Virus record (IMG/VR): IMGVR_UViG_3300032038_000027
Coordinates: 32,001 to 96,000 of that record
Reading direction: 5' to 3' (one strand)
Source of the DNA: a virus
Taxonomy: Duplodnaviria > Caudoviricetes
DNA: 64,000 nt
A program made the position numbers and the translations under genes. The first letter of the stretch is position 1. The number at the start of each line of letters is the position of its first letter. This document shows, one piece after another, positions 6,001-52,781 of the stretch. The notes under the pieces are model-generated. The model did not search any database, was not told the DNA's origin, and saw nothing but the letters and a program-made list of their open reading frames with translations.

Positions 6001-8962
6001 TATGGATACGGAAGAATCCGTAAATGCCTTAAATAATCTCAAAAATAGCATTTTGGGTCTATCAAACGCCACGGGACATAGTTCTGAGGTTGAAGAATAT
6101 CGCGATATTTTAAATCATTTAGAAACTAAGGAATCTTGTGATAATATTGATGAACTTACCGAAAAAATGAAATCATATGCTGACGAGTATAATAGACTTG
6201 TTGGTTATGGTAAAAAAGGTAATGTTGATTATAATAAAAGACCTGTTGTTTCAAAAGATGATGTAAAGGAGAAATATCCTGATTTTGATGGTGATTATGC
6301 TACTACATACGATCAAGGTTATGAAATTACGGATTCGAGCGGCAAGAATTATGCGGTTGTCGTAACACCCATTTTAGAAAATGGTAAAATTTTATCTCAG
6401 GAAGAATTAGATAAATATATTGATGATGTTTTAGAAGGTTCGGACGATGTATTAGAGGCAGATACTAAAAATCTAATAATTCATGCGGAGGCTGAAGGTG
6501 AAGGAGATTATTGGATTAAAAACGATGATGGCAGTCTTGAATTTGATTTTGAAAGTTTTAACGAGCAGTTAATTCCTGCAAAAGAGGGACATTTAGAAGC
6601 CTATCTTGATATTAATACCAATATGGACGATCTTATTCCTTATGCGGATAAATTAGGAATCTCTGTTGAACAGTTGAAATCAATAGGTGATATTCCCGCC
6701 GATCTATTTGCATCTGCTGATGAAGTAACCGATAAAATATCAAAACTCACATCGGAAATAGATGGTTTATCTGACACATATTCTGATATGATATCTATTA
6801 TAGAAGATTATAATGATAATGGTTATCTTACTCTTGATAATTTACAATCTATAATGGATATGGAACCGGAATATATTAATTTACTTATTGATGAAAATGG
6901 GCAAATTAATCTTAATAGTCAAGCATATAAGGACTATGTAGCATCTAAAGCAAAATCATTATTGGTTAATGAACTGCAAGATTTATATAATTCTATTCTT
7001 GGTATGCAAGTGGAAGAGGCACAGGCTTATGCGAACGCACAAGCATATGATGAAGAAACAGAAAGTGTGCAAAGTCTGCTTAATGCTACCACTAAATTAT
7101 ATTATGCCAAAGCTATGGCGAAAGATTCCGCTAATAATACTACTGCTTATACGGATGCTTTATCTCAGTCATTTAATACGGCGGCGAATTATGCTGCTAT
7201 GGTAGATAGTTATATTAGTAGTTTATCTACGCCTTTAAATGAATTTGATGTTGCCACAGAAGAAGCTACCGATTCTACTGACGAAATGACCTCGGCATTA
7301 GAAGCGGAAAAAGATGCTCTCGAATCCCAAAAAGATGCTTTGGAGGATAGTAAAGATTCTTTAGAGGATTATAAAGATTCAATAACTGATGCACAATCTG
7401 ATATTCAAAGTTTAATTGATCTTGTAACCGATTATATTAAGCAAACTAAAGAGGATGAAAAATCTGCTATACAAGACAGCATTGATGCTTTAGAAGATAA
7501 GAAAACTTCGTTGGATGAACAGAAAGATGCTTATTCTGAACTGATTGATAAACGCAAGGAAGAAATTGAGGCTTTATATGAAGAAAAGAAAGCCCAAGAT
7601 GAATTATCAGAAAAGCAAAAATCTGTCGCCAAAGATGCACTTGCATTAGCTGTTGCACAACTTGATGATAGTTCAGCCGGAAGAAAAGCGCAAAAGCAAG
7701 CACAAGATAATTTAAATACCAGTAATAAAGACCTAAAAGATTATCTTGATGAACAAGAAAAAGATAAACGTATTGAGGCTCTCGAAAACGATGAAACTGA
7801 ATACGAAGAAATGATTGAGAAACGTAAAGCTGCTATTGATGAACAAGTTGAATATTACGAATCTAAGATTGATGAAATAGACGCTTATCTTGATAATTCT
7901 CGTCAAATGTATGAAGATGCTTGCGCTATGATTGATAATGATACGGGCGAATTATATAGTAAATTATGGAATGAATATGTATATCCATATACTACACAAA
8001 CTCGCGCGGAATTCGATCATTTGTGGAGTAGCGCACAAGAAGCAATTCAAAAATACATTGGGGACAATGGAACATTAATTGGTACTATGGAATGGCTGCA
8101 AACTGAGATTTATACTACAGAATCGCAGATCGCAGAACTTGATAGCCAAATTGGAATTTTGGATGATTCGATAGATGATATTGATGAATCTATTAATAGC
8201 GTCAGTAGTTCAGTAGATACACAAAAAGATAAAGTAGGCGAACTTGGTAAGTCGTGGTCAAGTGCTACTTCCGATGTATCTAAATATATTGATGAATTAA
8301 ATAAGATACCAGATAGTGTTCCTGCTGTTAACAATACATCAAATCAAAATGATATTGAGATACCTTCGGATGCAAAATGGTATTTTGATTATTATAAAAA
8401 CGGGAAATTACATCGAGCTTGGTCTAAATCGAGAGATTATAATGTTGCCGTACAAGATATTATGAGGGAAATCCAAAAAGAAACTGGACAATACCGATCA
8501 GATGTATATGGTGGCATAAAGAAACGATATGCAGTAGGAACGTATAGCTCTATTGGCGGCGTTGCTGTAACGCAAGAGAATAATCGACTCGAAGAAATTT
8601 TCGGTAAATTACAAAATGGTCAATACACTATGATGTCTGAGGGTTCTCATGTATTAACACCACAGGCGACTACTAATTTACATAAATTCGCAGATAATCC
8701 CCCTGAATTTGTCGCACAGGCATTAAGTTATAGCGGATATTTGGGTAGAATTGAAAATGCGGCAAGAAACGTTGTAAGAAACATTGATAATCGTTCAATG
8801 GGCAATACTGAGATTTCTGCGCCGATTCAAATAAGTATTCAAGGTGATGCTACTCAATCAACCGTTAATGCTTTAAGAGCGGAATCAAAGAATATTGAGG
8901 AATCTATCATTAAAAAATTAGTAAGGATTAGAGAAGGAAAAAGAGGAATTATGATTAAATAA
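3..8962 (+). CDS. Phage tail tape measure protein, 5'-partial, split by four group I introns: join(<3..384,1399..1510,1982..2203,2624..2645,3884..8962)
   Basis: Manual splicing restores a continuous TMP core: EWSRLG-Y-SIKDAETMAK...LVSAMK-A-FDIEANDALDG...GQALK-T-ISMRIRG-YDEETEQF. Exon phases add up. A long Ala-rich/coiled-coil C-terminal exon precedes Dit. Confidence 0.92.
385..1398 (+). ncRNA. Group I intron 1 of tape measure gene (HEG-containing)
   Basis: Exon ends in U384 and intron ends in G1398. P4 tcggt/accga; P7 gatca/tgatc; 13-bp P6 extension 477-489/1221-1233 around the HEG. Confidence 0.88.
519..1259 (+). CDS. Intron-encoded homing endonuclease (Cys-rich DNA-binding repeats plus Vsr/PD-(D/E)XK-like nuclease)
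   Basis: Two RFGxL..CxCDCG..SCGC repeats; C-terminal LPFDFYLP..IEVQGQHHY; lies inside intron 1. Confidence 0.8.
   Translation: MKRKDYTNQRFGRLTVVEMLYGYRNKQTYARCICDCGQETIAYIGNIVKGATASCGCWEEQSRYNRKNHEKDICGKRFGHLLVIKKTDKRYLNKSVGWLCKCDCGNEIIVRSGSLLRGKTRSCGCNRRSKYEEFVEAYLKLANIDYDCEHRFPDCKNHFMLPFDFYLPNHNGKNYCIEVQGQHHYEPIKGWRGEEGFRDIQRNDSIKRDYCKNNNIILIELPYTLKESEVIHKLDSILNPVTITAA
1511..1981 (+). ncRNA. Group I intron 2 of tape measure gene (ORF-less, 471 nt)
   Basis: P1 aaggc/gcctt; P7 elements caacgactatt / aagaaatagtct; ends in G1981; removal restores AMK-A-FDIE. Confidence 0.85.
2204..2623 (+). ncRNA. Group I intron 3 of tape measure gene (ORF-less, 420 nt, paralog of intron 2)
   Basis: P1 aaaac/gtttt; caacgactatt / aagaaatagtct; ends in G2623; removal restores ALK-T-ISMRIRG; long identical blocks shared with intron 2. 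Confidence 0.85.
2646..3883 (+). ncRNA. Group I intron 4 of tape measure gene (HEG-containing)
   Basis: P1 gaggU/Gcctc with U.G pair; P7 gactg/cagtc; ends in G3883; removal gives ISMRIRG-YDEETE. Confidence 0.88.
2781..3704 (+). CDS. Intron-encoded homing endonuclease (CxxH/CxxC repeats plus Vsr/PD-(D/E)XK-like nuclease)
   Basis: SKGEDEI...RLPFDYYLP..VIEYNGKQHY...D..K..YC; lies inside intron 4. Confidence 0.8.
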   Translation: MKHRKYTFESISQILKEYGFILLDFISTTELISKDKEGYMYKLNLVNLKNGKKPNKYMLNPFALDNFKLYLQNNYPHYHLLDDKYINSKTKMKFICDLHIEKGIQENYVSNIVHNHHACLYCGCKELWDKKRTTIEQMQNECSRVGVEFVERTSKNNECWVNYICPNHREVGVQSTSWTHFKEIRNGCPLCNKISKGEDEIYLYLSEREIDFIKEYRFDDCKYKRRLPFDYYLPQYNMVIEYNGKQHYEPVKIFGGKENYEKTVLRDKIKQDYCKDNNIKMIIIPYWEYKNIKTILDNEIGCKAQNP

Positions 8963-29793: not shown

Positions 29794-30948
29794 TTATAAA
29801 TTGTTTTTCAATGAATCTACCGCCAAATATCCCTCGGCTTCAGCAAAATGAATGTAAGTATCGAGCGTGATCTGCACGCTTGCATGACCGAGTAGAGTAG
29901 AGATTGTTTTAATATCTGTATGATTTCTAAATAGCATATTGGCAAAAGTGTGCCTCAAAGAATGTGTTGAACCTTTATTTATATTTGTATTTTGAATTAT
30001 TCTGCGGAAGGTTCTATCATATTGTTGCGGCGCAAGAACACCGCCATCTTTCGCACATACTATTCTTTCAGACAGCGGAAATTTATCGCACATTCTTTGT
30101 AATGCTTTTTCAGCCATTTCATTTAGCGGAATTTTTCTATAGCCGGAATATGTTTTGGTAGTTGTAGATATTGTTTCATATCCTATGGCATTTCCATTAT
30201 CATCACGTTTTCTAACTGTCTGCACATTTTCTCTGATAGTCAAAACATGATTTTCTTTATTCCAATCCGATTTTTTGAGAGCTACAATCTCACCTCTTCT
30301 CGCCCCGGTATTAAGCTGCAAGATATAAGCATCACCATATAAATATACTGGCGTTTCTGAATTTGGATATAATCTTCTACATTCTTCAACTATAAGTCTT
30401 GATTCCTTATCGGTAAACCACACCATGTCTTTTTTTGGAAAACTGGATTTTTTCGCAAGAACAACTCCATCCATCGGATTATATTCAATGTGTTTCATTT
30501 TAAAAGCGTGAGAAAGAATCATTTTTGCGCCATCACGAGCTTTTTTCACAGTAGAGTATGACAATCCTTGCTTCTTTAATGTGTTTAGCATGATCTGTAT
30601 ATCTTTTGTTGTAATTTCAGAAATACGAATCATTCCGATATGAGGATAAATTTGATTTTTAAATGTTTTTTCAAGAGTATCATATGTGGATGCTTTAACG
30701 GTGTTTAATTTATATGTTACGAGCCATTCCTTTGCATATGTTTCGAATGATGTGGTTATAGGGTTGATATGAGTTTCGACATTGAATTGATTGATCTGCT
30801 TTTGTACTTCCATTTTTGTCTTGCCTGAAAAATAAGCCATTTCTGGTTTACCATTAGATTTGTATCTGCCCGTTCTTATTCTGCCGTAATATTTATCACC
30901 TCTTTTGTAAATACTTCCTGTTCCTTTTGGTCGTCGTGTTTGAGCCAT
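29794..30948 (-). CDS. int: Tyrosine integrase
   Basis: RRPKGTGSIY arm-binding N-terminus; TGARRGE, KT..GYR, HSLRHT, LLGH, TY.H catalytic residues. Confidence 0.95.
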   Translation of the reverse strand: MAQTRRPKGTGSIYKRGDKYYGRIRTGRYKSNGKPEMAYFSGKTKMEVQKQINQFNVETHINPITTSFETYAKEWLVTYKLNTVKASTYDTLEKTFKNQIYPHIGMIRISEITTKDIQIMLNTLKKQGLSYSTVKKARDGAKMILSHAFKMKHIEYNPMDGVVLAKKSSFPKKDMVWFTDKESRLIVEECRRLYPNSETPVYLYGDAYILQLNTGARRGEIVALKKSDWNKENHVLTIRENVQTVRKRDDNGNAIGYETISTTTKTYSGYRKIPLNEMAEKALQRMCDKFPLSERIVCAKDGGVLAPQQYDRTFRRIIQNTNINKGSTHSLRHTFANMLFRNHTDIKTISTLLGHASVQITLDTYIHFAEAEGYLAVDSLKNNL

Positions 30949-31279: not shown

Positions 31280-31354
31280 TGGAGGCGACGAACGGATTTG
31301 AACCGATGAATCAGGCTTTTGCAGAGCCGTGCCTTACCACTTGGCTACGTCGCC
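31280..31354 (-). tRNA. tRNA-Cys(GCA)
   Basis: GGCGACG/CGTCGCC acceptor stem, U73, encoded CCA, CTGCAAA anticodon loop, TTCAAAT T-loop. Confidence 0.93.
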
Positions 31355-31742: not shown

Positions 31743-32183
31743 TTATCTCCTACCAAATTCCCTTTTGTCACTTCGCCACACCATAATGTTTTGATGGGCT
31801 TCAGCTTCTTCTTTTGTTGTAAATACGCGCATATTAATGCTGTTTTGATTAGATAGCATAAGATCATTTGATACAGATGAACCGATATCTGTTTTCATTG
31901 TGAAACTATAATAGAGTTTCTTTTTAAGGGTAATTTTATACAGTCGCATTTTAACTATTTTATTTGATATATCATCTTTTGGCATAATCACATAATATAA
32001 GTTACCGACTTGTAATTCTTTTGATATGTGATTCATTATAATGCCTAAAGCATCTGAAAGTCCCGCAACATAGTGTTCTTGACAACTATTTTGAATACCT
32101 TTCATTTCAAAATTGATCTTATCTTGTAATTCTTTAATTGCCGGATGCGTGTATTCAATTTGAATCGGTGCTACCAAAGCCAC
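31743..32183 (-). CDS. Hypothetical protein (start uncertain)
   Basis: ORF fills the operon gap. Confidence 0.5.
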   Translation of the reverse strand: MALVAPIQIEYTHPAIKELQDKINFEMKGIQNSCQEHYVAGLSDALGIIMNHISKELQVGNLYYVIMPKDDISNKIVKMRLYKITLKKKLYYSFTMKTDIGSSVSNDLMLSNQNSINMRVFTTKEEAEAHQNIMVWRSDKREFGRR

Positions 32184-33258: not shown

Positions 33259-35834
33259 TTATCCTTTTAAATGTTTTACTCTATCTTCGGTTTCTGCTCT
33301 TTTGCCCGGATTAAATGCTTCAATGTAATCACCAGTTAGATATCCTGTTACTCGGCGCAATCTGCGAATTTCTGTACATCCACATTTGGGGCAAGCATCT
33401 TTAATTTCATCCGTCCAACCGCAGTTTTTGCACATATCATTAGGTACATTTGCCGCCGCATAAGGAATATCCTTATCCATCGCATAGTTAATAATGGTTT
33501 CAACTGCTTTAGGATTATCTTTTACACGAGCATTTAATTCAACATAAGTAATACAACCTGCACTTGAATAACCAGTTAATTGAGATTCAATATCAATTTT
33601 TTCGAAAGGAGTCATTTCTTTCCAAACAGGAACATGAATTGAATTAGTAAAATATTCACGATCAGAAACATTTGGAATAACGCCATATTTTTCTTTAAAC
33701 TTCTTCATGGCTGTATAGCAAAGATTTTCAGCAGGAGTATAATACACACCAAAGTTTAGTTTATATTTAGTTTTAAATTCAGCGCAGCGATCTTTGAATA
33801 ATTGCTCAATTTTTTTCGCAAGTTCCATGCCTCTTTCTTCGGTATGATCGCAACCGATAAGAATTTGAAGAGCTTCTGCAAGACCGAGCTGACCTACTGC
33901 AAGCGTACCATGCTTTAATGCAGATCGAATATCTTTACCATCATAGCCCTCCATTAAACCGTTTTCATACATGAACTTTGCGGCATCTGCGGGCTGAGAA
34001 CAAATATATTCAAATCTTTCAATAAGCATATCTTTCGCTTCGTGGATTTTTGCATCGAGCATATTTAAGAATACAGTAGGAATATCATCGTCATAATTTG
34101 AATCATATGATTCTTTCGCCATCATAGCGATTGTCGGTAAAATAATTGTTACGGGGCAGATATTTCCACGACCATCTTTTAATTGACCGAAGCCGTTAAT
34201 ATCATACCCATTAGCTGTTCTACACGTTTAAACCCTCTGTCACCAGAGGAACTGACTATATCTTCTATCTTTCGATAGCCTTCCGCTTCGGATGCGTGCC
34301 TATCTCGCATCCTACTCCCTTACATTCATCAGGGATAGTCGATACACTTTTAATTTAGCATAGATATTTTAATACTATTCTAAATCACTTAGCACGGTTT
34401 CAACTTATTAACTAAGTCCTGACCGTTAGCCCGTTTTATCGGACACCTTCGGGCGAAGTTCAAAAGGTTTTAGATGAGCTGTAGTTTACGCTTACCCATC
34501 GTTGAGAAATATGTTTTAGGGTCATTTCTGTCATATCCCTTATTACCAGACCAATCTACATTAGCGTAGTTCGGATATAATCTTAATGATGTTGATCTGA
34601 TTGCTAACTGGAATAAATCGTAATTTGGTTCGCCCTCTTTACGATTCACGCCGCGCATTAATTGAAAAATACCGCACGGGAAAATAGAGGTTTTATGTAG
34701 CTTGCCGATACCTTTAATCGAGGTTTCGAGTAGGCAACGAATAATCAGTCTACCTTCGGGAGAAGTGCAAGTACCGTAGTTGATTGAGGTGAATGGCAAC
34801 TGGTTTCCTGACCTGCTTTGAAGTGTATTTAAATTGTGATACATTCCCTCAACAGCTTGTTTGGTTTCAATAATTGTGTCATATAAAGCACTTTGCGCGT
34901 ATTTCTTGTTTAAATCAGTATTACCGAGATGATAATCATCTTCGGTTGTATTAGTTGCGGCGAAAAATTCGTCCTTATGGGAATCTACCCAATCATCAAA
35001 TCTGTTTCTCCAAACAATATTGCCATCAACGATTTCTTTGTAATCATCGAAAACCATATTAATGAGATCAAGTTCGACAAACTCAGGACGATCTTTTAGC
35101 CATGCGGCGATATAATGCTTTAGGAAACTTTTCTTAACATACGGCACCATTGTCCAATCTAAGTGTGTAGCGGAAACGCCGCCAAATTGCTGAAGGCTCT
35201 GTAATTGGAAAATCACAGCTACTAATTGAAAAGCTGTGCCTACAGATTGTGCGGGTCGAACATCTGTTTGTCTTGTGTTAAATCCATTTGCTAATAATTT
35301 ATCAAAAGGAATAGACAAGCAGTTATGATCTCCGACAGAATAATGGTCTAAATCATGAACGTAAATCATATTATTCACATGATTGATATAAGACATTTTA
35401 GACATTCGATTATTTAGTGCATCGTCTTTCATGGTTACACTTAGCGCAGCGCCCATTCTGCCGCCAAATGAATGTTCATCAACATTTGCGTTCTGATTCT
35501 TAACATTCTTCGCAAAGAGTTTTTCTTCCACTTCTTTCGAAAGTTTACTCTTTTGTTGTCTTGCGCGTGTTCTGTCGTTACGATAGATAATGTATGCTTT
35601 TGCGACATCTTTGCGAGAACTCTGCATGAGCTGCTTTTCGATAAGGTCTTGGATTTCTTCTACATTCATTTGTGGCTTATCAAGATTTGTAATGGATTGA
35701 GCAATATTCTCACAAATCTTTTCGGACGTTTCATCAAAATAGCCATCAATTTCGATGAAAGCCTTTTTCATGGCGTTGAGAATTTTCTGAACATTAAACT
35801 CTACAACACGACCATCACGTTTAATTACTTTCAT
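33259..35834 (-). CDS. nrdD: Class III ribonucleotide reductase, intron-split: complement(join(33259..34224,34494..35834))
   Basis: ATP-cone MKVIKRDG; HDLD..NC; splicing restores STMG-CRT; C-terminal CxxC..CxxC and RRVTGYL glycyl motif. Confidence 0.95.
34225..34493 (-). ncRNA. Group I intron in nrdD (269 nt, ORF-less)
   Basis: P1 gatgggU/Gctcatc; R gtatcgacta, S aagatatagtc; terminal G before TGT (Cys). Confidence 0.92.
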
Positions 35835-36417
35835 TAGATACCTCCATATTGTGTGTTTCACCATTTAAGGCGTGATTGTATATTAGACTAACAACTTCTT
35901 CGGGCGAAAGTTTGTATCTATCATTTTCAATAACGTAATTAACTTCACGCTCAAATCCGGCAAACTGCCCTTCATCAGATGTGCAACGGCGATACGCTTC
36001 TTCAATATCGTCGCCACGTTCTAACATTTTAATTAGTCGAGAACGTCGATCTACATTAAGATAAACGATAACCATATCAGTATGGTAATATTTATTGTAT
36101 GTTTTAAACGCCCTAACGCCAGTAGGATTAAGAACTACAACTTGATTTAGCATTGGGTTCATATCAATTTTTGTGCCATATTGCCAATTCTTATATGTAA
36201 CAAATTCAAAGAACTCATTATTATCTTTCATTCGGTTGAATTGCTCGTCCGTTACAAAGTGATAGTCAACACAATCTTGCTCATTTTCTCTTGGCTTTCT
36301 TGTAGTGTATGTGATAACTTGTTTTATATCATTACGATTATCATCGTTAATCATTTTGGCGCAAGTAGATTTACCACTCGCACTTGCACCTGCTAAAATC
36401 AATATCATTCGTTCCAT
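35821..36417 (-). CDS. gmk: Guanylate kinase
   Basis: GASASGKST, TTRKPR.NE...DYHF, YGT. Confidence 0.9.
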   Translation of the reverse strand: MERMILILAGASASGKSTCAKMINDDNRNDIKQVITYTTRKPRENEQDCVDYHFVTDEQFNRMKDNNEFFEFVTYKNWQYGTKIDMNPMLNQVVVLNPTGVRAFKTYNKYYHTDMVIVYLNVDRRSRLIKMLERGDDIEEAYRRCTSDEGQFAGFEREVNYVIENDRYKLSPEEVVSLIYNHALNGETHNMEVSNESN

Positions 36418-37256: not shown

Positions 37257-38102
37257 TCAGATTCCAATATCTAATGTTAATTGTGGCTTGATCGGGTCAT
37301 AATTAATCATCTCAAAATCATCAATGGTAAAGTCATAAAAATTGTTTTTATCAGGGTTCAGAATAAGTTGCGGCTGATTTTCTGGCTGATCGTCAATATG
37401 TTTATTAAATCTTTTGAAAAGTTCGTCCGCAGCTTCGGTGTGCCTATCATATATTTGCTCATTGGCAACAACATGAGAGAATACGCCCGGTTCATATCCT
37501 GTATGTCTTGCAATCATCATCAGTAGTGCGGCATATTGTACTTCATTTACGCCACCGCCGCCAGATGCCATTAACATATCGCCAGAGCGTTGAATTAGCA
37601 TCATATCAAGGAATTTACCTCTAACGTTCCAAATTGTTAAGAAGGCGCAAGGTGCAAGTCCGGGTGTTTCATTCAAATCCGTATCTTGCCAAAGATTGAC
37701 GATTTTGCGGCGACCATAAGGGTCTGTTTGAATATCTTTGATTAATTTATTAATTAAATCGTAACGCTTTACAGTGCCGCCATATCTTTGCCCGATAGTG
37801 CCATCGCCAATATCCCATTCATTCCACCATTTAACACCCATCTGCTCCATTTCTGAAATTACATTGGTAGGCTTTTGATAAATGGTGAAAATCTCTTTGA
37901 TTGCTGTTCTCCATGCAATTGGTCTTAGGGTGCAGATCGGAAATTCGCCAATGCCTAAATCATACATTCTTCCAACATGATTAACTGAATATGTATGTGC
38001 AGGTGTGCCGTCTTTGTATTTCGGGCGCGGATTTTCATCTTTATAACCAAATTCTTTAATTTTTTGAATACCATAAGCTAAGTAATAATCAGCTTTTGTC
38101 AT
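37257..38102 (-). CDS. thyA: Thymidylate synthase
   Basis: PYGRRK, LAPCAF, QRSGD, N..QY, QIYDRH. Confidence 0.95.
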   Translation of the reverse strand: MTKADYYLAYGIQKIKEFGYKDENPRPKYKDGTPAHTYSVNHVGRMYDLGIGEFPICTLRPIAWRTAIKEIFTIYQKPTNVISEMEQMGVKWWNEWDIGDGTIGQRYGGTVKRYDLINKLIKDIQTDPYGRRKIVNLWQDTDLNETPGLAPCAFLTIWNVRGKFLDMMLIQRSGDMLMASGGGGVNEVQYAALLMMIARHTGYEPGVFSHVVANEQIYDRHTEAADELFKRFNKHIDDQPENQPQLILNPDKNNFYDFTIDDFEMINYDPIKPQLTLDIGI

Positions 38103-38106
38103 TTAT

Positions 38107-38373
38107 TCACTCTCCATACTTTGCGATATACGCATTATTTTTAAATGTGATCTTATATTCGTTAGTAGTTTCTTTTTGCTCGAATTGATCGTAAATTGGT
38201 TCAGTGCGAGAAATAGATATTGAAATAGGAGAATTTGATCTCGCTACTTGCTCCATTAGCCCAGAAAACTCACTCATGATAAGTAATGCAGGAGATGTTA
38301 TTTGTTTCGCGCTCTTTACGCCGTCATTGTTAAGTTCAATTAATACGGTGAAAATTTCAAAAGTTTCAAACAT
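38107..38373 (-). CDS. Hypothetical protein
   Basis: ORF with RBS in the operon. Confidence 0.5.
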   Translation of the reverse strand: MFETFEIFTVLIELNNDGVKSAKQITSPALLIMSEFSGLMEQVARSNSPISISISRTEPIYDQFEQKETTNEYKITFKNNAYIAKYGE

Positions 38374-38387
38374 TTTAGCTCCTTATC

Positions 38388-39614
38388 TTAACTTAATTCT
38401 ACTAAGTATTTGATTGTTGATTGTTCTTCTTTATAAACTATAATTTCATCGTTATAGAGCATTTTCCCTGCATGAGCGTGTAAACAATTTGCGCCCGGAC
38501 AATTCTTTTGCAAGCGATCATAATTAAAATCATAATATTTTGAATCATGCGAATATACATCAAACGGCTTGCCATAGGCAACACTCATGAGCGCCATGAA
38601 ACCTGAGTGTGAATTACCTCTCGCCCAATAGCTACCATTAATACTTGTATATCCTAATGACTTTTTGGCTTTTGGCGCATAATAAATGCCATATCCAAAC
38701 ATTTTGCCTGTGATAACAGCATTTGTAGGTCTAAGGACTAAACCGCCTTGAATAATCGACCACCAATTCTCATTTCTGCTACCATGAAACAGCAAACGAA
38801 CATCATGAATATGATTCTCTGCAACAAAGTTATCAAATCTTTCTTGCGTTTTAATATTCGTAACCTTCCATGCGTTGCGAAATCTGTCTACGCAACTGCC
38901 AAGAGCCACTTTGATTGTTGCAATATCATCTCTATCACATTCTTCAATAATAAGCCCAAGAGATTCAAGAATCGTTTTATCATAAATGGGTGCTGTTTCA
39001 TCATGCACTGTTTCATCAAGCGCTTGTTTTTCAATTACTTGTCCTTTCATAACGTCAAGCAGATTTTGCTCTTTATCAATGATCTTATTAAAATCTTTAT
39101 TGTCTTTTGCGAGATAGCTTCCTACGCTACCCATTTTTCGCGGAATAGTAGTAAACAACTTGATTAAACTATCATTAAAGTCTTGAACGTTAGTGATGGA
39201 AAGTAATCCATTGATAATATCTTGCGCTTCGTCGATCATCGCATGAGTAACTTTATTAGAAGAAACAGTGTAATTTTCGCTAATAACTTTCTTTGCCATA
39301 CGTTGTAAACGATCAACAATATTCGCTATATTAGCATTTTCAATGGGCTTATATTCTGGATTCATTGTCGGCGAAACTTTCTGAATAGTAATTAAATCTT
39401 GTACTAAATCCGTCTGATCTTTATACCCTTTACGAATTTTTTCTTTATATTTTTTATCCCATTCAGATAACGGATAGGAGCGAATTTGTGGATTGCTCCC
39501 TACTCTGCCATATTCAGCAATCCACGAATCGCCATTTGGTTTCATGTCATAATATTTATTGTTGTTCGCTCCTGCCGTAACCATAACTAAGTGTTTAGGA
39601 GTGTAATCCGGCAT
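38388..39614 (-). CDS. PARP1-like ADP-ribosyltransferase (WGR + helical regulatory + PARP catalytic domain)
   Basis: NNNKYY..EYGRVG..K.RKGY (WGR); LFTTIP (HD); LLFHGS, GKMFGYGIYYA, KSLGY, YNDEIIVY..Q...YLVE (H-Y-E triad). Confidence 0.9.
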   Translation of the reverse strand: MPDYTPKHLVMVTAGANNNKYYDMKPNGDSWIAEYGRVGSNPQIRSYPLSEWDKKYKEKIRKGYKDQTDLVQDLITIQKVSPTMNPEYKPIENANIANIVDRLQRMAKKVISENYTVSSNKVTHAMIDEAQDIINGLLSITNVQDFNDSLIKLFTTIPRKMGSVGSYLAKDNKDFNKIIDKEQNLLDVMKGQVIEKQALDETVHDETAPIYDKTILESLGLIIEECDRDDIATIKVALGSCVDRFRNAWKVTNIKTQERFDNFVAENHIHDVRLLFHGSRNENWWSIIQGGLVLRPTNAVITGKMFGYGIYYAPKAKKSLGYTSINGSYWARGNSHSGFMALMSVAYGKPFDVYSHDSKYYDFNYDRLQKNCPGANCLHAHAGKMLYNDEIIVYKEEQSTIKYLVELS

Positions 39615-39624
39615 AAGTCACCTC

Positions 39625-40062
39625 TTAAAGCGTATAAACAACAATTTCAATATCAGTACCACTAAAGACATCTTCGAGAATGTCTTTTACCGTTTCCCAA
39701 TTCAATCGGTCAAGTCCGCAGCCAATTCGCGGAATAGCTAATTTGTCAATGTCAAAAAGGCACATTTGTTCTTTCATATCCACCAATGAATCATAAAGAT
39801 CATCATAAGTTGGTTTATGGAAACAACGGGCTTTAGTGACCAAATTAAATACATTATCTACAAGTAGCGCACGACCTACATTCGCAAATTTTGCACCTTC
39901 AGGAATCGCATAATCTCTGTGTAGCTTAAATTTCATGTTATAAGTTTCATCAAACTTAACCGCAATTCCCGCGCCAAGAGCGTAATCGCCACTGATACAA
40001 TGTGCAAGGTAATATCCTTGCGGGGCTGAGAATAGATCACCCTGTTTTTCAATTAATTGCAT
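39625..40062 (-). CDS. Macrodomain ADP-ribosylhydrolase (TARG1/DarG-like)
   Basis: GDLF, LAHCISGD.ALGAGIA, FNLVTK, KPTY, IPRIGCGLDRLNW. Confidence 0.9.
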   Translation of the reverse strand: MQLIEKQGDLFSAPQGYYLAHCISGDYALGAGIAVKFDETYNMKFKLHRDYAIPEGAKFANVGRALLVDNVFNLVTKARCFHKPTYDDLYDSLVDMKEQMCLFDIDKLAIPRIGCGLDRLNWETVKDILEDVFSGTDIEIVVYTL

Positions 40063-40080: not shown

Positions 40081-43000
40081 TTATAATGAGGATATTTTTT
40101 GATAGCGAGATATCCATAACTCGCTTGTATTGGGTATAGATTCCCATTTACCTAATTCATTTTTGCGCTGTTTAGGCTTTTTTGTAGTGCTGCTGATCGT
40201 AACAATATCGCCCTCTTCTAATACGCATTTTTTGAATAAAGGTTTTGAGATTTTACAGTCAATAGTCGTACCATTTTTTAAAGAGTACATTTTACAGCGC
40301 GGAGAATATTTAGTATCAATTTCTAATACTACCGCCATACCACTGTATCTATCATCACGAATAGTTAAATATCCAAGATACTCTTTTTGCGCTTTGATAT
40401 CGTCTGATAATTTTCGTGGCGAAAATTTCAGCTTATTTGCAACAGAATTAGCAAATTCTCTAAAATTCACATCCGTAAACATTGTTTGTGTTTCTCTTTT
40501 GGCATAAGGCTTAATATCTTCAGTGCCTAAATTAAATGTAGCTAAAGCATCTTTTTTAAATTGTTTCTTGCCGACGAATTTGTTGAAAAATTCAGCTTGT
40601 TTTAGCAATAAGTTAATATCGCCAAATTCAGAAAAGTAATCCAATTCAATCAAACACTTTAATTGTGATTTTGTTGCAGAAGTTTTATACTTTATATCAA
40701 ATAGTAATTCAAAGAATGTCTTATAATTATTGTCGCGAAATTCGTAGATTTCATCAGCTACTTTAGCGTTCATGCCTTTAATACTCTGTATGCCTTTATA
40801 AATACTGTAATCAGTCCTTGATAAAGCATAATCGCCTTTTGAATATCTGAACTTAATCGGGCGCAATTTTATTCCCCAATAATCCAATTCTTTAGTAAGT
40901 CTTAATGTACGCTTTTCGTCATCACCATAAAAGTTTAGAGCTGTTGTATAATATTCCAATGGATAATGTGATTTTAAATACGCGCCGTATAAGCTATCGT
41001 AAGCATAAGAGAGAGAATGTGAAGCGTTAAATGAATAGTGCGCCGCTTGTTCAACAACTGTCCACGTTCCATCAAAATTATCAGGATTTCCAACTTTTTT
41101 ATTCCAACCTTCAAGAAGTTGTTGTTTCAGTGCTTTCAATTCCGGCTCTTTAAATTTTTTCTTTGATATTTTTTTGATAATATCATATGAACCTGTTTCT
41201 TTAACGCCTAACCAGATCAAGTATTTCATGATTAGTTCCTGATAAATCATGCGGTTATTGCCCTCTGCGAGAAGATCATCTAATTCTTTAACACCAGTAG
41301 AGTAATCTTTGCGATCTATGAAATCTTGTAAAAGGCTTGCGCAACCCGGACGAATGATCGCAACAAACGCAGACATCTCAGATACACTTTTAGGTTTATA
41401 ACGTTTGACCAAGCCTGTTGCGAAATCGCTATCAGCCTGATTGATAGTACACGTTAATCCATTTTTATATATGTCAAATGTTTCATCGTCAAGTAATTCG
41501 TTAAATTCGCGGATTGTTGGAATAGGAATATTCGCCATTTTGCACACTTCGCGAATAATTGCCCAAACTGTGACGGTCAAATAATCATTTTTCAAATATT
41601 TATATTTATCACAGTTGTAACCATCAAGTAGACAACATATTTTCGGCGAATCTTTAGAATTTGTTCTAATAAGACCTAATTCTTGTCTTACAGGTTTATA
41701 GTACAATAACATCGAGCATGGTGATTCGGATATGCTTTCTATAACTCCGATGAATCGTTTGCTTTCTTGTATGATATTCTTCCATTTCTTATCATGCTCG
41801 TAAGCTGCTAAATTTTTCGCTACATCATCGTAGTCTTTAATATCTAATCCAATTCCTTTGCAGTAAAGGCGAAACGCTTTTGCGGCTTGTAATGGATTCC
41901 ATGCTACCATCCATGCGCAATTTTCTGCGCCAAGTAAATCTTCTGTTGCTTTAATAAATGGAACTCTGTCTGTTGTATTAAGGTCTATCCTTTATACCCT
42001 CGGTTTCCCGATATTTATTAGGGGAGTAGACTATACCATCATCGTTGATATTATCTTGGATGCCAGTTGGTAGTCGTTGGGGGCTTTAATAATATAAATT
42101 ATTACTATCCCTGCTGATTGCCCATTGTTACATACGCAACATTTTCACACTTTGGTAGTTACGTCTTTAGGGGTTTCCAGCATATTCTGGTTTTCATTAC
42201 ATATCACTATGTAATGCGACAAAATAACTATGTTATAAATATTTCCAATGCAATCCCGCCGCTGTCCTTGTTGGGTGCTTTAACGCAACGGTCAATGAAC
42301 CATCTGATTTAATTTTATATTTTTCTTTTGCATATTTGATACATTCAAATATTTCACCAGTTTCAATGCACATGATTCTTTTAGCATTTGGATTATTTTC
42401 ATTTTTATATATAGGATTGTTTCGTTGCTTTATACTTAATTTTTCTTTTTGGTCGTCTGTCCAATAATGTTTAAAATTAGGATTATTCTCGCCAGACACT
42501 AATTTGGAAATTTTTGCTCTAAATTCAGCGGATTGATATATTCCGCTTTCTTGACGTTCTTTAAGAACTCTGGCTTTATAATCTTCATCTTCCCATTTCT
42601 TCTTATTAATTTGCGATTGCTTTTTTCTAAACTCTTCGGGTGCTTTCCAACCTACAGTACCTTCACCACCTTTCGTAAGATTATACCCATTTGGTGCTTT
42701 AGAGTTATACATTTCAATATATTTCTTTTCTAAAGCGCAAGCACTTTCGAATGTTAAATTATCAGCTATAATTTTATGGCTGAAGTTTTCCCAACCATAT
42801 TTATTAATCGCATTTCTAAAATATCCTTTATATCCTTTACCACCTTTTCTCCATCTTTTTTCCGGTGGTATTTGACTGGTTATTCCTATATATTTTTTAC
42901 CATTGAACAAATTTGTGTGCATATATACGCACCAATTAGAATTAACATTGTTATACATTTATCGGGTAAAGACCTTGCACCCAATATTCTTTCGACAGAC

Positions 43001-44151
43001 ATAAATCTATGTGGAAACAGCGTAATCGGTGAAGCAATACGATCAATATCGGTTAAACCAAGTAATTTAGTAATATAAAAACTGGGAGCTGACCCGCGCC
43101 CCGTATTGGTTAATCTGCCATCATATTTTGCTTGTCCGTTTTTTGCAACAATATAATCAATTAAGAAATAGTTCTCCATATGAGTTTTTTCAACGATATC
43201 TAACTCATACTCAATAGCTTTGGTGTATTCTTCCCAACGCTCTTTTGGAACATTATGTTTCTCGATATCCCATTGATTATTGATAATTTCGCGCAAATCT
43301 TCTGTTGGTGTTTCAGAAACTTGCGGCAATTTTATATCATCATTAATCAATGTAATCGATTCACATTCATCAAACACATTAGTCTTATCGAGCGCAGATT
43401 TTGCCAACGAACTTTTTACAACACCTTGCTTATCATATCTGTCGAGGATTTCATCATATCCGGGATAATCAAGACACATTTCATCTTCATTATCATATTT
43501 AAAACCTTTGGCTTCTAATAGAATATCGCGATATTTTGAATCCTCTGGATAAATATAGTGACTATCATTTGCATGAATTATCGGTATTCCAACTTGCTCA
43601 TGAAGTTTCAGCATTTTTTGATTTACGGTCTTTTGTAGAGCGAAATTATGATTTTGAATTTCTAAAAAGAAATTATCTCCGAACTTTCTATATAAAGCTA
43701 AGATCAATTCACTATCGTCCCAAATTCCCGCAACACACGCTGTTGTAATAATGAAGTTTTTAGGATTTAAAGAGAATAATAATTGCCGATCAATTCTTGG
43801 TTTGCGATAAAAGCCCGTAATATGCGCCTCAGACATGATATCATTAAGCTGCATTACACCTTCATTATTTTTCGCAATAATTATTAAGTGCTTGTTGCTA
43901 TTATCTTTTTCAAATCTATCAGTAACATAATACGCTTCAGTTCCATAACACATTTTGAGATTATATTTTTTAGATTTCTCCATCCACTCAAAAATGTTGC
44001 CTGTAACGCCATGATTCACAGTAAAAACGGTATCATGCCCTAATTCAACAGCACGTTTACAATAATCTTCGGGACTTACTGCAACGTCCATCATCCACGG
44101 ATTACCATAATAATCATGCTTATGATAATTTTTATAAATATCAGTTATCAT
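40081..44151 (-). CDS. dnaE: DNA polymerase III alpha (DnaE-like), intron-split: complement(join(40081..41988,42961..44151))
   Basis: PHP domain (H.H, NHG, ANDSHY), GRGSA, splicing restores LPD-IDLN, KNDYL, IYQE, YSFNASH; about 1032 aa. Confidence 0.93.
41989..42960 (-). ncRNA. Group I intron in dnaE with HEG in the P1 loop
   Basis: Exon ends GAU; IGS gtcg lies after the HEG; caacgactac / ggtatagtct P7 elements; terminal G before ATA GAC. Confidence 0.9.
42233..42958 (-). CDS. GIY-YIG homing endonuclease with NUMOD-type C-terminus
   Basis: CVYMHTN..NGKKYIGIT, RW, E..YI, GYNLT.GG; GENNP and CIETGEIF NUMOD-like motifs. Confidence 0.92.
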   Translation of the reverse strand: MYNNVNSNWCVYMHTNLFNGKKYIGITSQIPPEKRWRKGGKGYKGYFRNAINKYGWENFSHKIIADNLTFESACALEKKYIEMYNSKAPNGYNLTKGGEGTVGWKAPEEFRKKQSQINKKKWEDEDYKARVLKERQESGIYQSAEFRAKISKLVSGENNPNFKHYWTDDQKEKLSIKQRNNPIYKNENNPNAKRIMCIETGEIFECIKYAKEKYKIKSDGSLTVALKHPTRTAAGLHWKYL

Positions 44152-50107: not shown

Positions 50108-51214
50108 TTAATGCGCCGCCACATCCGCTTCATGGATTAGCATAACGTCATTAAACATATCCTCTCCAATTAGCTTTAAATCACGATTGCGCGATTTTTC
50201 TGATCTATTCCAACTCATGTACGGGTGCATATGGTAATAAATCAAATTACATAAATAACTCAATTTATCGGAATTAAGTTCATCCATAAAGCCGTAGAAT
50301 AGAGCCTCATAAGCGCCGACACATTGATGCTGATAATAGTGACATTCACCGTCGTCAATTCCCTTGAAGTTCACTCTTGTCTTTGTGTGTTCTTTGCCGT
50401 TATCATGTAACACAGTTGCAAATTTAAAGAGAACAAAATCATTTTTAACCTTTGCGGCAATTTCATCTCGATCAACATACTCTAACGCCTTAATAGAATG
50501 ACTGCCCAAAGTGAGTGCATGATGTGAATTTTCTTGGTCAAAATGTGCCGCTCTTGAAAGATAATCCATGAGATAATAAGTGTTTGAATAAGTATTAACT
50601 ATACTTTTATCAAAGATATAATAAATATCATTAAATCCCTCATGCTTATGTGGCGGTGTGTAGTTAAAATACATTCTCTTAACTACTTCCTGCGGTACTT
50701 TCTGGGTGCGAAATTCATTTGTCGGTCTTTCGGCGCACCTTTGCAAACATTTCTCATAAGGTGTCGCCATTACCACACAAATCTTCTCGCAATCAATTTT
50801 CTTAATACGTTGCAGGAAATCAATTCTCAATGACTTTTTGATATTTGTCGCATCATAAATAACGCTTTTACCGTTAGACAAATCATTGATGATATTTTTA
50901 TGTAATTGATTGAAAAGAGTTTGATTATCTCCTTGAATAGCTGCATCACCATATAATTCATGGCGTAATTTATCAGAAGAATGAATAATTGGAGTAATTA
51001 ATAAATGAGCATTAAATGTTGCGTCGAATTTAATCTTGTTGCCGTGTAGACAAGTTGTGGGATATTCTTCGGAAATATGAATTCGATTTTCCGCATAATA
51101 AGATTTGCCAGAACCCGGAAGTCCTATCATCATAATGAAATAAGGCTTCTCTTTTTTATCTAATAAAAGCTGATAATCATTGAATAAAATATTATTTTGC
51201 TGATTATTTTTCAC
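50108..51214 (-). CDS. Polynucleotide kinase (AAA_33-like) fused to an HD phosphohydrolase
   Basis: GLPGSGKS, SSD.LR, DATN; H...L..H, LHDNGK, HYYQH, YHM, HEAD. Confidence 0.85.
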   Translation of the reverse strand: MKNNQQNNILFNDYQLLLDKKEKPYFIMMIGLPGSGKSYYAENRIHISEEYPTTCLHGNKIKFDATFNAHLLITPIIHSSDKLRHELYGDAAIQGDNQTLFNQLHKNIINDLSNGKSVIYDATNIKKSLRIDFLQRIKKIDCEKICVVMATPYEKCLQRCAERPTNEFRTQKVPQEVVKRMYFNYTPPHKHEGFNDIYYIFDKSIVNTYSNTYYLMDYLSRAAHFDQENSHHALTLGSHSIKALEYVDRDEIAAKVKNDFVLFKFATVLHDNGKEHTKTRVNFKGIDDGECHYYQHQCVGAYEALFYGFMDELNSDKLSYLCNLIYYHMHPYMSWNRSEKSRNRDLKLIGEDMFNDVMLIHEADVAAH

Positions 51215-51603
51215 TGTTCATCATCCTCTTCAAGCTCTGGAATCCGATCATTCTCTTGAATATCTTCGTCAATTACTTTCTTATCCTGTTCGGTGATAAG
51301 TCCAAATTCAGCCATTTCGGGGTTGTTATTCGCCACTCGGCAATAAGCCTTGACCTCACTAATGCGCTGAATAAGCGGTTTAGATGTATCGGCGAGCTTA
51401 TCAAGCACAACCTTAGAGCAAATATAAATTCCCTTTTTCAAGCCCTCTACGAATTGTTTCCGTAAGGCATCAGCAATAATCCGATTCATTTCTTCATCGG
51501 CTTTTCTTTTTTCTTCCTCGGTGATTTTCTTAGGTGCGGCAGGTTCAACACCTAAAGGGGTAATCGGTGATTTAGGATTAGTTGTGTCCATATTAACCTC
51601 CAT
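51211..51603 (-). CDS. Hypothetical protein
   Basis: ORF in the operon. Confidence 0.45.
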   Translation of the reverse strand: MEVNMDTTNPKSPITPLGVEPAAPKKITEEEKRKADEEMNRIIADALRKQFVEGLKKGIYICSKVVLDKLADTSKPLIQRISEVKAYCRVANNNPEMAEFGLITEQDKKVIDEDIQENDRIPELEEDDEQ

Positions 51604-51605
51604 AA

Positions 51606-52781
51606 TTAACTGTGATGTTTTAGTAGGTATTCGTTTGATACATTCTTAAAGCTCATATCATTAGTCGGGTCACGCAATACAACACCCTCACGAAGAACAT
51701 TAGGATTGATCGCTGAAGGAGCGGTTGCATATTTCTTAAACGTTTCCATATCATTCGGGATATGGTAATTTGTATCTAAGATAGGCACAAATTTCATGCC
51801 CATGCTTTCGACAATTTCTTTCGCTTCAACTGACGGCAAACGCCCACGATCTGAACGAATAAAGTTAAAGATATATAAATCATCTTCATCAAGTTTCAAC
51901 GGATTGCCTTGAACCTTGCCAACAGCTTCACCTTGAATACATACATAATCAAGCTCCGGAAATGCGTTCAGATAACTTTTTAATACATTTTCAATATCGT
52001 ATTTAAAGGCGTTATTCCAATAAATATTTTCATCGTGATAACACTCCTGATCGGGCGTAAGTTGTCGCACATTTCTTGAAAGAACATAAAACTCAAACTT
52101 CTTCTTACCTTTGCGTTCGAGAATATATGTTGAACTCGTTCCATCTAATTTTTCAGTAACAACGAATTTGTTTGGTAAACCTAATACCCACGGCATATTT
52201 TCGCAGCGCTCTTCGTCGGTCTTATGTACAAACGAGAACTGAGTAGGAAAAGCAAGTGGTTTATCTTTCTTTCTACCAAAGATAAAGAATAGTAACTTTC
52301 TGCCCCACTTTCGTTTCATCAGCTTTCTGATAAATGGCTTTCTAAATAATTCTTTATGTCGTGCAGCCATTGATTTATATTTTGCGTTAGGGTCTGGCTT
52401 TGCGGATTTTCTGACATTATCTTCCGGCACATAGTATTTTACTCCCAACAGATCAGTAACATCAGCACCGATATCAAGATCATTGACTTCCGGGAATACA
52501 TTCGCGGGCATCAATAGACCCTGCGATAATACCTTGCACATCTTTTGCGTTTTGATCTTATAATGCTTTGACTCTAAAAACGCAAAACGCTCGTCTGTTT
52601 CGGGAACTTTACTGTCAATTTCAAAGTAAATTGCCCTATCCCCTACATTAAATTCATCTTTACGAACGACACACCACCAACCGTTTGTTCTTGCATGAAC
52701 AACACGATCATAGTTCGGAATCGGGCGAATTTCATCAATCGTAACAATATAAGCTAACGCTCTTTTGCTATTACTTACCAT
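51606..52781 (-). CDS. RNA ligase (Rnl2/DRB0094-like, N-terminal OB domain)
   Basis: YFEIDS, KTDEER, TEKLDGTS, QGE, FVPIL, REGVV, SFK.VS. Confidence 0.9.
   Translation of the reverse strand: MVSNSKRALAYIVTIDEIRPIPNYDRVVHARTNGWWCVVRKDEFNVGDRAIYFEIDSKVPETDERFAFLESKHYKIKTQKMCKVLSQGLLMPANVFPEVNDLDIGADVTDLLGVKYYVPEDNVRKSAKPDPNAKYKSMAARHKELFRKPFIRKLMKRKWGRKLLFFIFGRKKDKPLAFPTQFSFVHKTDEERCENMPWVLGLPNKFVVTEKLDGTSSTYILERKGKKKFEFYVLSRNVRQLTPDQECYHDENIYWNNAFKYDIENVLKSYLNAFPELDYVCIQGEAVGKVQGNPLKLDEDDLYIFNFIRSDRGRLPSVEAKEIVESMGMKFVPILDTNYHIPNDMETFKKYATAPSAINPNVLREGVVLRDPTNDMSFKNVSNEYLLKHHS

Follow-up and report, generated by a model that had tools for sequence, protein, structure and literature searches.

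The DNA analyzed here, called the window, is a stretch of 64,000 nucleotides (nt) from a virus of the Caudoviricetes (positions 32,001 to 96,000 of the IMG/VR record IMGVR_UViG_3300032038_000027). It is part of a 115.7-kb IMG/VR viral contig with an estimated completeness of ~74%, and it derives from a large temperate phage, probably one that infects Clostridia of the rumen or gut. Two adjoining genes on the minus strand encode a TARG1-type macrodomain protein of 145 amino acids (aa), a predicted ADP-ribosyl hydrolase acting as eraser, and directly downstream a PARP homologue of 408 aa, a predicted DNA-dependent ADP-ribosyltransferase acting as writer. An original prediction, made from the letters of the window alone, had placed two such genes 10 nt apart within a replication operon, and both open reading frames (ORFs) lie as it described. 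The two proteins are ordinary members of known families; the novelty lies in a phage operon that is conserved, couples the PARP gene to that of a TARG1-type eraser and is associated with genes of the replisome and of ligases.

The core of the PARPs that are activated by DNA breaks is complete in the writer and comprises a WGR domain, a helical domain and an ADP-ribosyltransferase (ART) domain with the H-Y-E triad of the nicotinamide adenine dinucleotide (NAD+) site. Pfam identifies the PARP catalytic domain in residues 250-407 (3.6e-22, 79.3 bits, cut-off 26.7) and the WGR domain in residues 8-68 (3.3e-06, 27.5 bits, cut-off 22), and does not report PARP_reg for the protein at E <= 0.01. In a phmmer search of the PDB, PARP1 is found first (1.3e-12), followed by PARP2 and then PARP3. 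The alignment spans the helical domain to the ART domain, placing residues 123-225 on the helical domain of PARP1 and pairing LLFHGSR with LLWHGSR, GYGIYYA with GKGIYFA and KSLGY with KSANY. H277 (FHGS), Y311 (GIYYA), K318 (KSLGY) and E390, the glutamate of NDE, are thus aligned to H862, Y896, K903 and E988 of PARP1, and every motif quoted in the original prediction for this protein is present. The protein also matches PHROG 23333 (1.7e-61). It has no zinc fingers and no BRCT domain and therefore shows a minimal PARP2/3-like layout.

The proposed PARP2/3-like domain order is further borne out by structure prediction. An AlphaFold2 model based on an alignment of 43 relatives has a predicted local distance difference test (pLDDT) score of 79.7 and contains helices at residues 94-114, 124-137, 143-156, 172-192 and 228-244 in the helical-domain region. 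The top Foldseek matches (~1e-20) are WGR-helical-ART chains from structures of PARP1 and PARP2 on DNA breaks, so that the structural comparison proposed with the original prediction came out in its favor. With VIA-align, residues 1-408 of the model superpose on PARP1 549-1006 (4dqy_C) with Z 25.2 and 356 aligned residues, and the helical and ART domains align to the catalytic fragments of PARP1/2/3/4 from residue ~85. Among the 43 relatives, N17, N19, K20, Y22, G36, R37, G39, K59, K62, G63 and Y64 of the WGR domain are invariant, as are several helical-domain residues and H277, Y311, K318, Y322 and E390; H-Y-E is kept in 81/81 intact relatives. Fusions of a macrodomain with a PARP were sought among longer homologues, which yielded only Microscilla-type PARPs of ~765 aa with an unrelated N-terminal extension.

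For the macrodomain, phmmer gives a full-length match to human TARG1/OARD1 (6e-30) with an identity of 42-45%. K77 (LVTKAR) is placed on K84 of TARG1 (LITKKR) and D118 on D125 in an identical GCGLDRL loop, so both macrodomain motifs of the original prediction (LVTK and GCGLD) are found as well. The AlphaFold2 model (pLDDT 95.1) retrieves TARG1 first in Foldseek (4j5s/4j5q; TM-score 0.88, root-mean-square deviation ~1.9 A, 42% identity) and then DarG macrodomains at ~21%; a further match is phrog_335 (3.6e-21). Of the two catalytic residues, the lysine is retained in 72/74 relatives and the aspartate in 44/74. The protein had been described as TARG1/DarG-like, of which the TARG1 half stands and the DarG architecture does not: NCBIfam DarG yields 45.8 bits (cut-off 250), on the macro part only, and the PADLOC DarG match is confined to positions 26-143 of 329, again the macro part. 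An identity as DarG was rejected, as the protein has 145 aa compared to ~330, lacks the C-terminal DarT-binding domain and neighbors dnaE and a PARP gene instead of DarT. DarT (PF14487) does not adjoin the pair and gave no match in the 115.7-kb record, a search that returned no match in control genomes either. A complex prediction of PARP and macrodomain with two alignments gave no answer (score 0.00) and is neutral on binding. The identity to human TARG1 is unusually high for a phage protein, which hints, at the level of sequence, at a fairly recent horizontal transfer between phage or bacterial and animal lineages.

Both genes belong to a tightly packed minus-strand array with tiny gaps that encodes a Sak single-strand-annealing protein, DnaB, DnaG, a PD-(D/E)XK nuclease, DnaE, the macrodomain, the PARP, an 88-aa ORF, ThyA, DHFR, a guanylate-kinase-like protein, NrdD (two ORFs), NrdG and dUTPase (Table 1). 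The simplest reading of this array is one long operon, and the proposed location inside a replication operon is well founded. A scan of 35.5-45.5 kb for promoters and terminators gave counts no higher than shuffled sequence, hence no signal of its own for the pair. The pair had also been placed between dnaE and thyA. The macrodomain ORF indeed starts 18 nt past the dnaE stop, but the 88-aa ORF separates the PARP gene from thyA. The macrodomain gene is preceded by a strong Shine-Dalgarno sequence (GGAGG, 40076-40072). The equally strong one of the PARP gene (AGAGGTGA, 39625-39618) overlaps the macrodomain stop codon, making translational coupling likely; judged from the sequence, eraser and writer are therefore probably translationally coupled.

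Table 1. Positions of the macrodomain and PARP genes, the PARP domains and the flanking features in the window.
Feature	Position	Strand	Description
DnaE (Pol III alpha), C-terminal part	40081..41910	-	Pfam DNA_pol3_finger 6.8e-19 + HHH_6
Macrodomain gene	39625..40062	-	145 aa
Spacer between macrodomain and PARP	39615..39624	-	10 nt, read from sequence
PARP-like gene	38388..39614	-	408 aa + stop
WGR domain	39381..39614	-	residues ~1-78; motifs NNNKYY, YGRVG, KIRKGY
Helical (HD / PARP_reg-like) domain	38880..39359	-	residues ~86-245
ART catalytic domain	38391..38879	-	residues ~246-408; H277, Y311, K318, E390
ORF, 88 aa, no family assignment	38107..38373	-	14 nt downstream of PARP
thyA	37257..38102	-	beyond the 88-aa ORF, so not adjoining PARP

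The pairing of the two genes is real and far beyond chance, since the adjacency recurs in dozens of independent contigs. A scan of IMG/VR returned 100 PARP relatives, from which 80 loci with 53-76% identity were retained, and tblastn located a macrodomain homologue directly upstream of the PARP gene in 72 of these 80. ORF reading and Pfam added four more, with a divergent TARG1-type macrodomain upstream in three (L050, L052 and L083) and a MacroD-type protein just downstream in L054. In L063 and L075 a MacroD-type (Pfam Macro) protein fills the upstream eraser slot. As for other occupants of the upstream position, L082 has a 195-aa ORF of no assigned family, L060 offers only ~750 nt of upstream sequence, with a 100-aa ORF, and L061 (3192-7218 of a 290-kb IMG/VR contig) carries two tandem divergent PARP paralogues, each following a 183-185-aa ORF that replaces the macrodomain; neither of these ORFs is matched by Pfam, and they could encode another kind of partner. 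In 65/72 loci, -16 to +13 nt lie between the stop codon of the macrodomain gene and the start of the PARP gene. The remaining seven gaps measure ~700-870 nt; among the loci read, five have free-standing GIY-YIG homing endonuclease genes in the gap, the exceptions being L079 with an unclassified 265-aa ORF and L084 with no plus-strand ORF. Homing endonuclease genes typically invade conserved core regions. Among the closest bacterial-genome loci, 14/17 show the macrodomain adjacency.

A maximum-likelihood tree of 106 non-redundant PARPs, on which eraser types were assigned by motif, contains a crown clade of Bacillota phages with 84 rows. The eraser is adjacent in 76 of them, so that the co-occurrence in relatives expected for a functional pair is found. 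By type, 46 erasers across the tree are TARG1-type with Lys and Asp, 27 are TARG1-type with Lys and with Asn or Gly in place of Asp, and three are MacroD-type; the tree requires ~5 presence/absence changes and four type changes of the eraser. The ratio of non-synonymous to synonymous substitution rates (dN/dS) is ~0.09 for the PARP and ~0.22 for the macrodomain, indicating purifying selection, with values that are rough as dS is saturated. Moreover, the pairwise identities of PARP and macrodomain correlate (rho 0.67). Outside the crown clade, in Cellulophaga phage phi4:1, LR756500 and RAS14, no macrodomain is encoded within 5-6 kb of the PARP gene, and each genome has an unlinked one elsewhere. 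The co-occurrence of a TARG1-like macrodomain in these three distant PARP phages was not counted as evidence, as Macro domains are reported from 40-56% of phages of that size (PMC9503650).

The surroundings of the pair were surveyed by clustering the same-strand ORFs within 6 kb of the PARP gene in 110 non-redundant loci. The macrodomain is the most frequent neighbor (77/110 loci; upstream except for four copies), followed by DnaE upstream of the pair (48/110), an ERCC4 nuclease (31/110), the NAD-dependent ligase LigA, usually directly upstream of the macrodomain (25/110), and an ATP-dependent DNA ligase (13/110). DNA methylases, ThyX, NrdD and a PAPS-reductase-like protein also recur. Any DNA ligase is present within 6 kb in 38/110 loci, or in 33/85 loci with full flanks. 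The gene order PARP, small ORF (100-154 aa), ATP-dependent DNA ligase is found in L100, L102, L060, L113 and L001 (Cellulophaga phage phi4:1_13), and the lineages with this order, including phi4:1, Paenibacillus, L060 and L113, lack an adjacent macrodomain. The link between PARP and ligase recurs even in very distant PARPs (phi4:1, Paenibacillus, L113). The 88-aa ORF of the window has no Pfam, PHROG or PADLOC match; its homologues lie just downstream of the PARP gene in 11 non-redundant loci, and it is possibly an accessory gene. In two Bacteroidota-linked loci (L001 and L109) a CCA-adding/poly(A) polymerase-like gene precedes the PARP gene.

A link to NAD+ supply shows up in occasional loci. 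In L006 (4989-5990), L007 and L085 the macrodomain ORF carries an N-terminal extension of ~190 aa matching AAA_28 (5.2e-07), which we take to be the NadR ribosylnicotinamide-kinase fold family; this fusion may link the eraser to NAD+ salvage. L103 (Clostridium tagluense A121; 1452-7218) encodes the NAD-dependent LigA, a nicotinamide mononucleotide (NMN)-adenylyltransferase-like protein, labeled from its best NCBIfam matches, which lie below their cut-offs, and the PARP on one strand; the NMN-adenylyltransferase-like gene adjoins that of the PARP, and no macrodomain lies within 1.2 kb. In the 115.7-kb record (~74% complete), neither a second Macro domain nor NAMPT gave a match.

Taken as a whole, we favor the reading that the pair carries out a break-activated, reversible ADP-ribosylation that serves replication and repair of the phage DNA, and we hold this to be somewhat more probable than all else. 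The two genes would form a cognate writer/eraser cassette expressed together with the replication and nucleotide-metabolism genes. The WGR domain would bind to phage DNA at nicks or ends that arise in replication or recombination or through damage, and this binding would relieve the autoinhibition exerted by the helical domain and free the active site. The PARP would then use NAD+ to ADP-ribosylate itself and nearby proteins on Asp/Glu, these residues being the proposed targets because no HPF1-like factor was seen that might redirect the reaction to serine, and terminal DNA phosphates might be modified as well. The macrodomain would strip the ester- or phosphate-linked marks, thereby resetting the signal and limiting damage by over-modification, and the eraser-first gene order would ensure that the writer is never made without the eraser. 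The net role would be to coordinate the sensing of breaks with ligation and recombination of the phage DNA.

The exchange of eraser types between loci fits into this scheme. MacroD enzymes are not known to reverse thymine-linked ADP-ribose. That both macrodomain types fill the slot argues, partly on the basis of this property, against a purely anti-DarT role of the macrodomain. Either type can fill it, as TARG1-type and MacroD-type enzymes remove the same Asp/Glu- and phosphate-linked marks, substrates which TARG1 and MacroD share (PMC6582358). The individual steps lean on the established biochemistry of PARPs and TARG1 (PMC6582358, PMC8501950, PMC8120803).

Several points weigh against break-activated signaling by the pair. 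Each functional step is derived from sequence, models and analogy. The linkers of the PARP model are weak (residues 75-85 and 194-207), and whether the product is a polymer or mono-ADP-ribose is not readable from sequence, as H-Y-E is necessary but not sufficient. The original prediction had taken H-Y-E as the mark of polymerizing PARPs, which goes too far, PARP3 being described as a mono-transferase (PMC6582358). HaPARP from Herpetosiphon aurantiacus and CdPARP from Clostridioides difficile, for which activity is documented, belong to another PARP clade than the 'Clostridiales' WGR-PARPs (PMC5966428). On the side of the eraser, the catalytic Asp is replaced by Asn or Gly in 27/76 paired relatives, about a third, so that the eraser chemistry there may differ from that of TARG1. 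Furthermore, 25 deeper-branching PARPs have no adjacent macrodomain; PARPs of this kind occur in Cellulophaga and Stenotrophomonas phages and an uncultured jumbo phage as well as in Bacteroidota, Planctomycetota and Treponema. A location in the replication module alone would bring ligase and DnaE close to the pair, and the neighbor statistics are not independent support for a role in repair. Finally, the 115.7-kb record, at ~74% completeness, gave no match for LigA, for an ATP-dependent ligase or for PARG (bacterial type, PF10021), and PARG was likewise not matched in three other PARP phages. Given that no PARG was found, the PARP may produce mono-ADP-ribose or short chains; alternatively, the TARG1-type enzyme may free whole chains.

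A sub-case of the same reading takes DNA itself as the main substrate, the PARP capping 5'/3' phosphates at nicks and ends of the phage DNA, as PARP2 and PARP3 do in vitro, to shield them from host exonucleases or hold them until repair, and the macrodomain uncapping them for a ligase. PARP1-3 were described to modify phosphates at DNA breaks and TARG1, MACROD1/2, PARG and ARH3 to remove this mark (PMC6582358). The TARG1-type and MacroD-type erasers beside the phage PARPs share the uncapping activity, ligase genes recur beside the pair, and the minimal PARP2/3-like layout would suit such a task. However, sequence cannot separate DNA from protein targets, ADP-ribosylation of ends by PARPs is known mainly in vitro, and the incomplete record of this phage lacks a ligase match, so that we regard DNA as the main substrate as unlikely. 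We are similarly doubtful of a more specific form, in which the phage PARP would guard DNA ends against host nucleases (restriction, CRISPR, AddAB) or replication breaks by capping the terminal phosphates and/or modifying the attacking nuclease, with the co-translated TARG1-like enzyme uncapping the ends for a phage or host ligase. If true, it would represent break signaling in a bacterial virus with nucleic-acid ADP-ribosylation as the working mark, and would suggest that animal TARG1 originated in phage and bacterial lineages.

It is also rather improbable that the PARP serves host takeover or counter-defense by modifying host RNA polymerase, recombination or repair nucleases or restriction and defense proteins in the manner of Alt/Mod of phage T4, the macrodomain protecting phage proteins or recycling the mark. 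Phage ARTs classically target host proteins, and Iyer et al. 2021, 2022 list phage PARPs/PARTs among the commoner viral ART families and propose the same modification of host proteins for phage PARPs, with chains (PMC7824862, PMC9503650). However, the gene lies in the replication operon and not with early or virion-packaged genes, its invariant WGR and helical regulatory domains speak for DNA-dependent control and not for a constitutive modification of the host, and the obligatory, tightly coupled eraser would be left unexplained.

Still less probable is a prophage toxin-antitoxin, abortive-infection or superinfection-exclusion system as in DarTG or the sirtuin-macrodomain pairs, in which incoming or damaged DNA would trigger the PARP as a toxin, by over-modification or NAD+ use, and the macrodomain would be the antitoxin. 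The antidote-first order and the tight coupling would fit, as would the temperate lifestyle of the phage, the relatives in bacterial chromosomes, e.g., of Lachnospiraceae TWA4, and the DarG macrodomains as nearest bacterial relatives of the macrodomain; in addition, Sirtuin-Macro pairs resembling toxin-antitoxin systems exist in phages (PMC9503650). Against this stand the embedding of the pair within an operon for lytic replication, where promoter and terminator signals do not exceed those of shuffled controls, a PARP that matches no PADLOC model and a macrodomain without the DarT-binding domain of DarG. Moreover, the pair keeps the same place in many phage backbones and in the company of core genes invaded by homing endonucleases, unlike typical mobile defense islands. 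The NAD-draining defense with the macrodomain as antidote, which the original prediction had put forward, is weak for the same reasons and since removal of ADP-ribose cannot restore NAD+; a writer combined with an eraser would, if it changed anything, increase NAD+ consumption by cycling.

Least probable of all is that the macrodomain is an anti-defense enzyme, reversing DNA ADP-ribosylation by host DarT or degrading ADP-ribose-derived immune signals, and merely lies beside the PARP: TARG1-like macrodomains are found in 164 phage records of GenBank, of which nearly all lack a PARP, TARG1 reverses DarT damage (PMC8501950) and Macro domains are common in medium and jumbo phages (40-56%; PMC9503650), but ~90% of a diverse clade retain both adjacency and coupling, both genes are co-inherited, and a MacroD-type sometimes replaces the TARG1-type protein in the same slot.

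Compared to known systems, the phage PARP shares with human PARP2/PARP3 and the PARP1 core the order of WGR, helical and ART domains, the H-Y-E triad, the equivalents of K903 and Y907 and a full-length superposition. It differs in an identity of only ~20-24%, in its length of 408 aa, in a WGR domain that begins at residue ~8, in a PARP_reg match below threshold, and in being encoded by a phage of bacteria, in which chromatin is absent and no HPF1 was seen. The macrodomain equals human TARG1/OARD1 (C6orf130) in length, Lys/Asp dyad and GCGLD loop, and differs from it in being phage-encoded, in its operon coupling to a PARP and in the substitution of the Asp among its paired relatives. HaPARP and CdPARP likewise combine WGR, helical and ART domains with H-Y-E; both were shown to make poly(ADP-ribose) (PAR) in vitro, HaPARP in a DNA-dependent manner (PMC8120803, PMC5966428). 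In bacterial PARP/PARG systems the eraser is a PARG encoded elsewhere, whereas the phage encodes a TARG1-type macrodomain in the same operon. The DarT-DarG and SirTM-macrodomain operons are also two-gene arrangements of a writer and a macrodomain eraser, but the phage writer is a regulated WGR-PARP and the cassette lies in a replication operon instead of a stand-alone toxin-antitoxin locus. As the original prediction held, the ARTs Alt, ModA and ModB of T4 are of a different class, R-S-E in contrast to the H-Y-E active site of the phage PARP.

The kind of gene is not undescribed as had been thought, since phage PARPs and viral TARG1-like macrodomains were catalogued between 2014 and 2022, PHROG 23333 covers the PARP and GenBank has a label for the family as well. 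In Perina et al. 2014, Aeromonas phage Aeh1 and Cellulophaga phage phi4:1 are listed as carriers of PARP genes, and many viruses are noted to have TARG1-like homologues (PMC4245714). The PARP of phi4:1, annotated as poly(ADP-ribose) polymerase, has 31% identity over 98% of the length and belongs to the same family. García-Saura et al. 2018 describe a 'Clostridiales' WGR-PARP_cat clade with a modeled helical domain and PAR synthesis by CdPARP, HaPARP having been found active earlier (PMC5966428). Going by the published description of layout and host group, this Clade 1.2 is probably the same family as the phage clade. Whereas the catalogued phage PARPs (phi4:1, LR756500, RAS14) have no nearby macrodomain, it is the Bacillota-phage crown clade that is characterized by the tight eraser-writer operon. 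The portions of the literature returned by our search neither describe a macrodomain-PARP operon as a conserved part of phage replication modules nor report a functional study of one.

Catalogues of prokaryotic and viral PARPs go back over ten years, yet the literature searched gave no biological role for any of these proteins. This module, in which a minimal PARP of the DNA-break type is tied firmly to an eraser of its own within the replisome operon of a phage, provides a defined and widespread test case for such a role. If it senses or marks DNA breaks, PARP-type break signaling would work without chromatin, and the contest of phage DNA with host nucleases could turn out to have a further layer. 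The identity of the eraser to human TARG1 also bears on the origin of the animal enzyme. Relatives reside in the cultured strains Ruminococcus sp. YE282, Lacrimispora amygdalina and Lachnospiraceae bacterium TWA4, where the copy lies inside a 3.1-Mb scaffold, so the question is open to genetics.

PARP homologues form 4,119 clusters at 90% identity, and the closest copies in bacterial genomes belong to Clostridia and other Bacillota, with Paenibacillus further out. A megablast search of GenBank phages with the 5 kb surrounding the pair returned no match; the best PARP match among these phages has 41% identity, in an uncultured jumbo phage, and no close cultured phage is among them. DNA runs sharing parts of the window stem mostly from bovine and goat gut metagenomes (14 studies; shares 0.10-0.28), by which a gut habitat, ruminant and other, is only suggested, and NrdD/NrdG fit an anaerobic host. 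No RNA run was among the sequencing runs listed for the window. The phage is temperate as judged by its tyrosine integrase (29794-30948), which adjoins a tRNA gene (31283-31354, minus strand), suggesting a tRNA-linked attachment site.

Some genes of the array are interrupted. The dnaE gene (40081-44151, minus strand) is divided into two ORFs, with a PHP/N-terminal part at 42886-44151 and the finger/HhH C-terminal part given in Table 1, and between them lies a GIY-YIG + NUMOD3 homing endonuclease gene (241 aa, 42233-42958). The anaerobic ribonucleotide reductase gene nrdD (33259-35864, minus strand) is split into ORFs 34470-35864 and 33259-34125 with a gap of 344 nt, which may represent an intron or a split gene. 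Rfam at the gathering threshold gave the tRNA as sole match in 30.5-45 kb and no intron model in the dnaE or nrdD gaps. Elsewhere in the window, a candidate RNA-repair pair is encoded at 50108-52781 (minus strand), formed by an AAA_33/polynucleotide-kinase-like protein (50108-51214) and an RNA ligase of the Rnl type that carries a PHA02142 OB domain (51606-52781).

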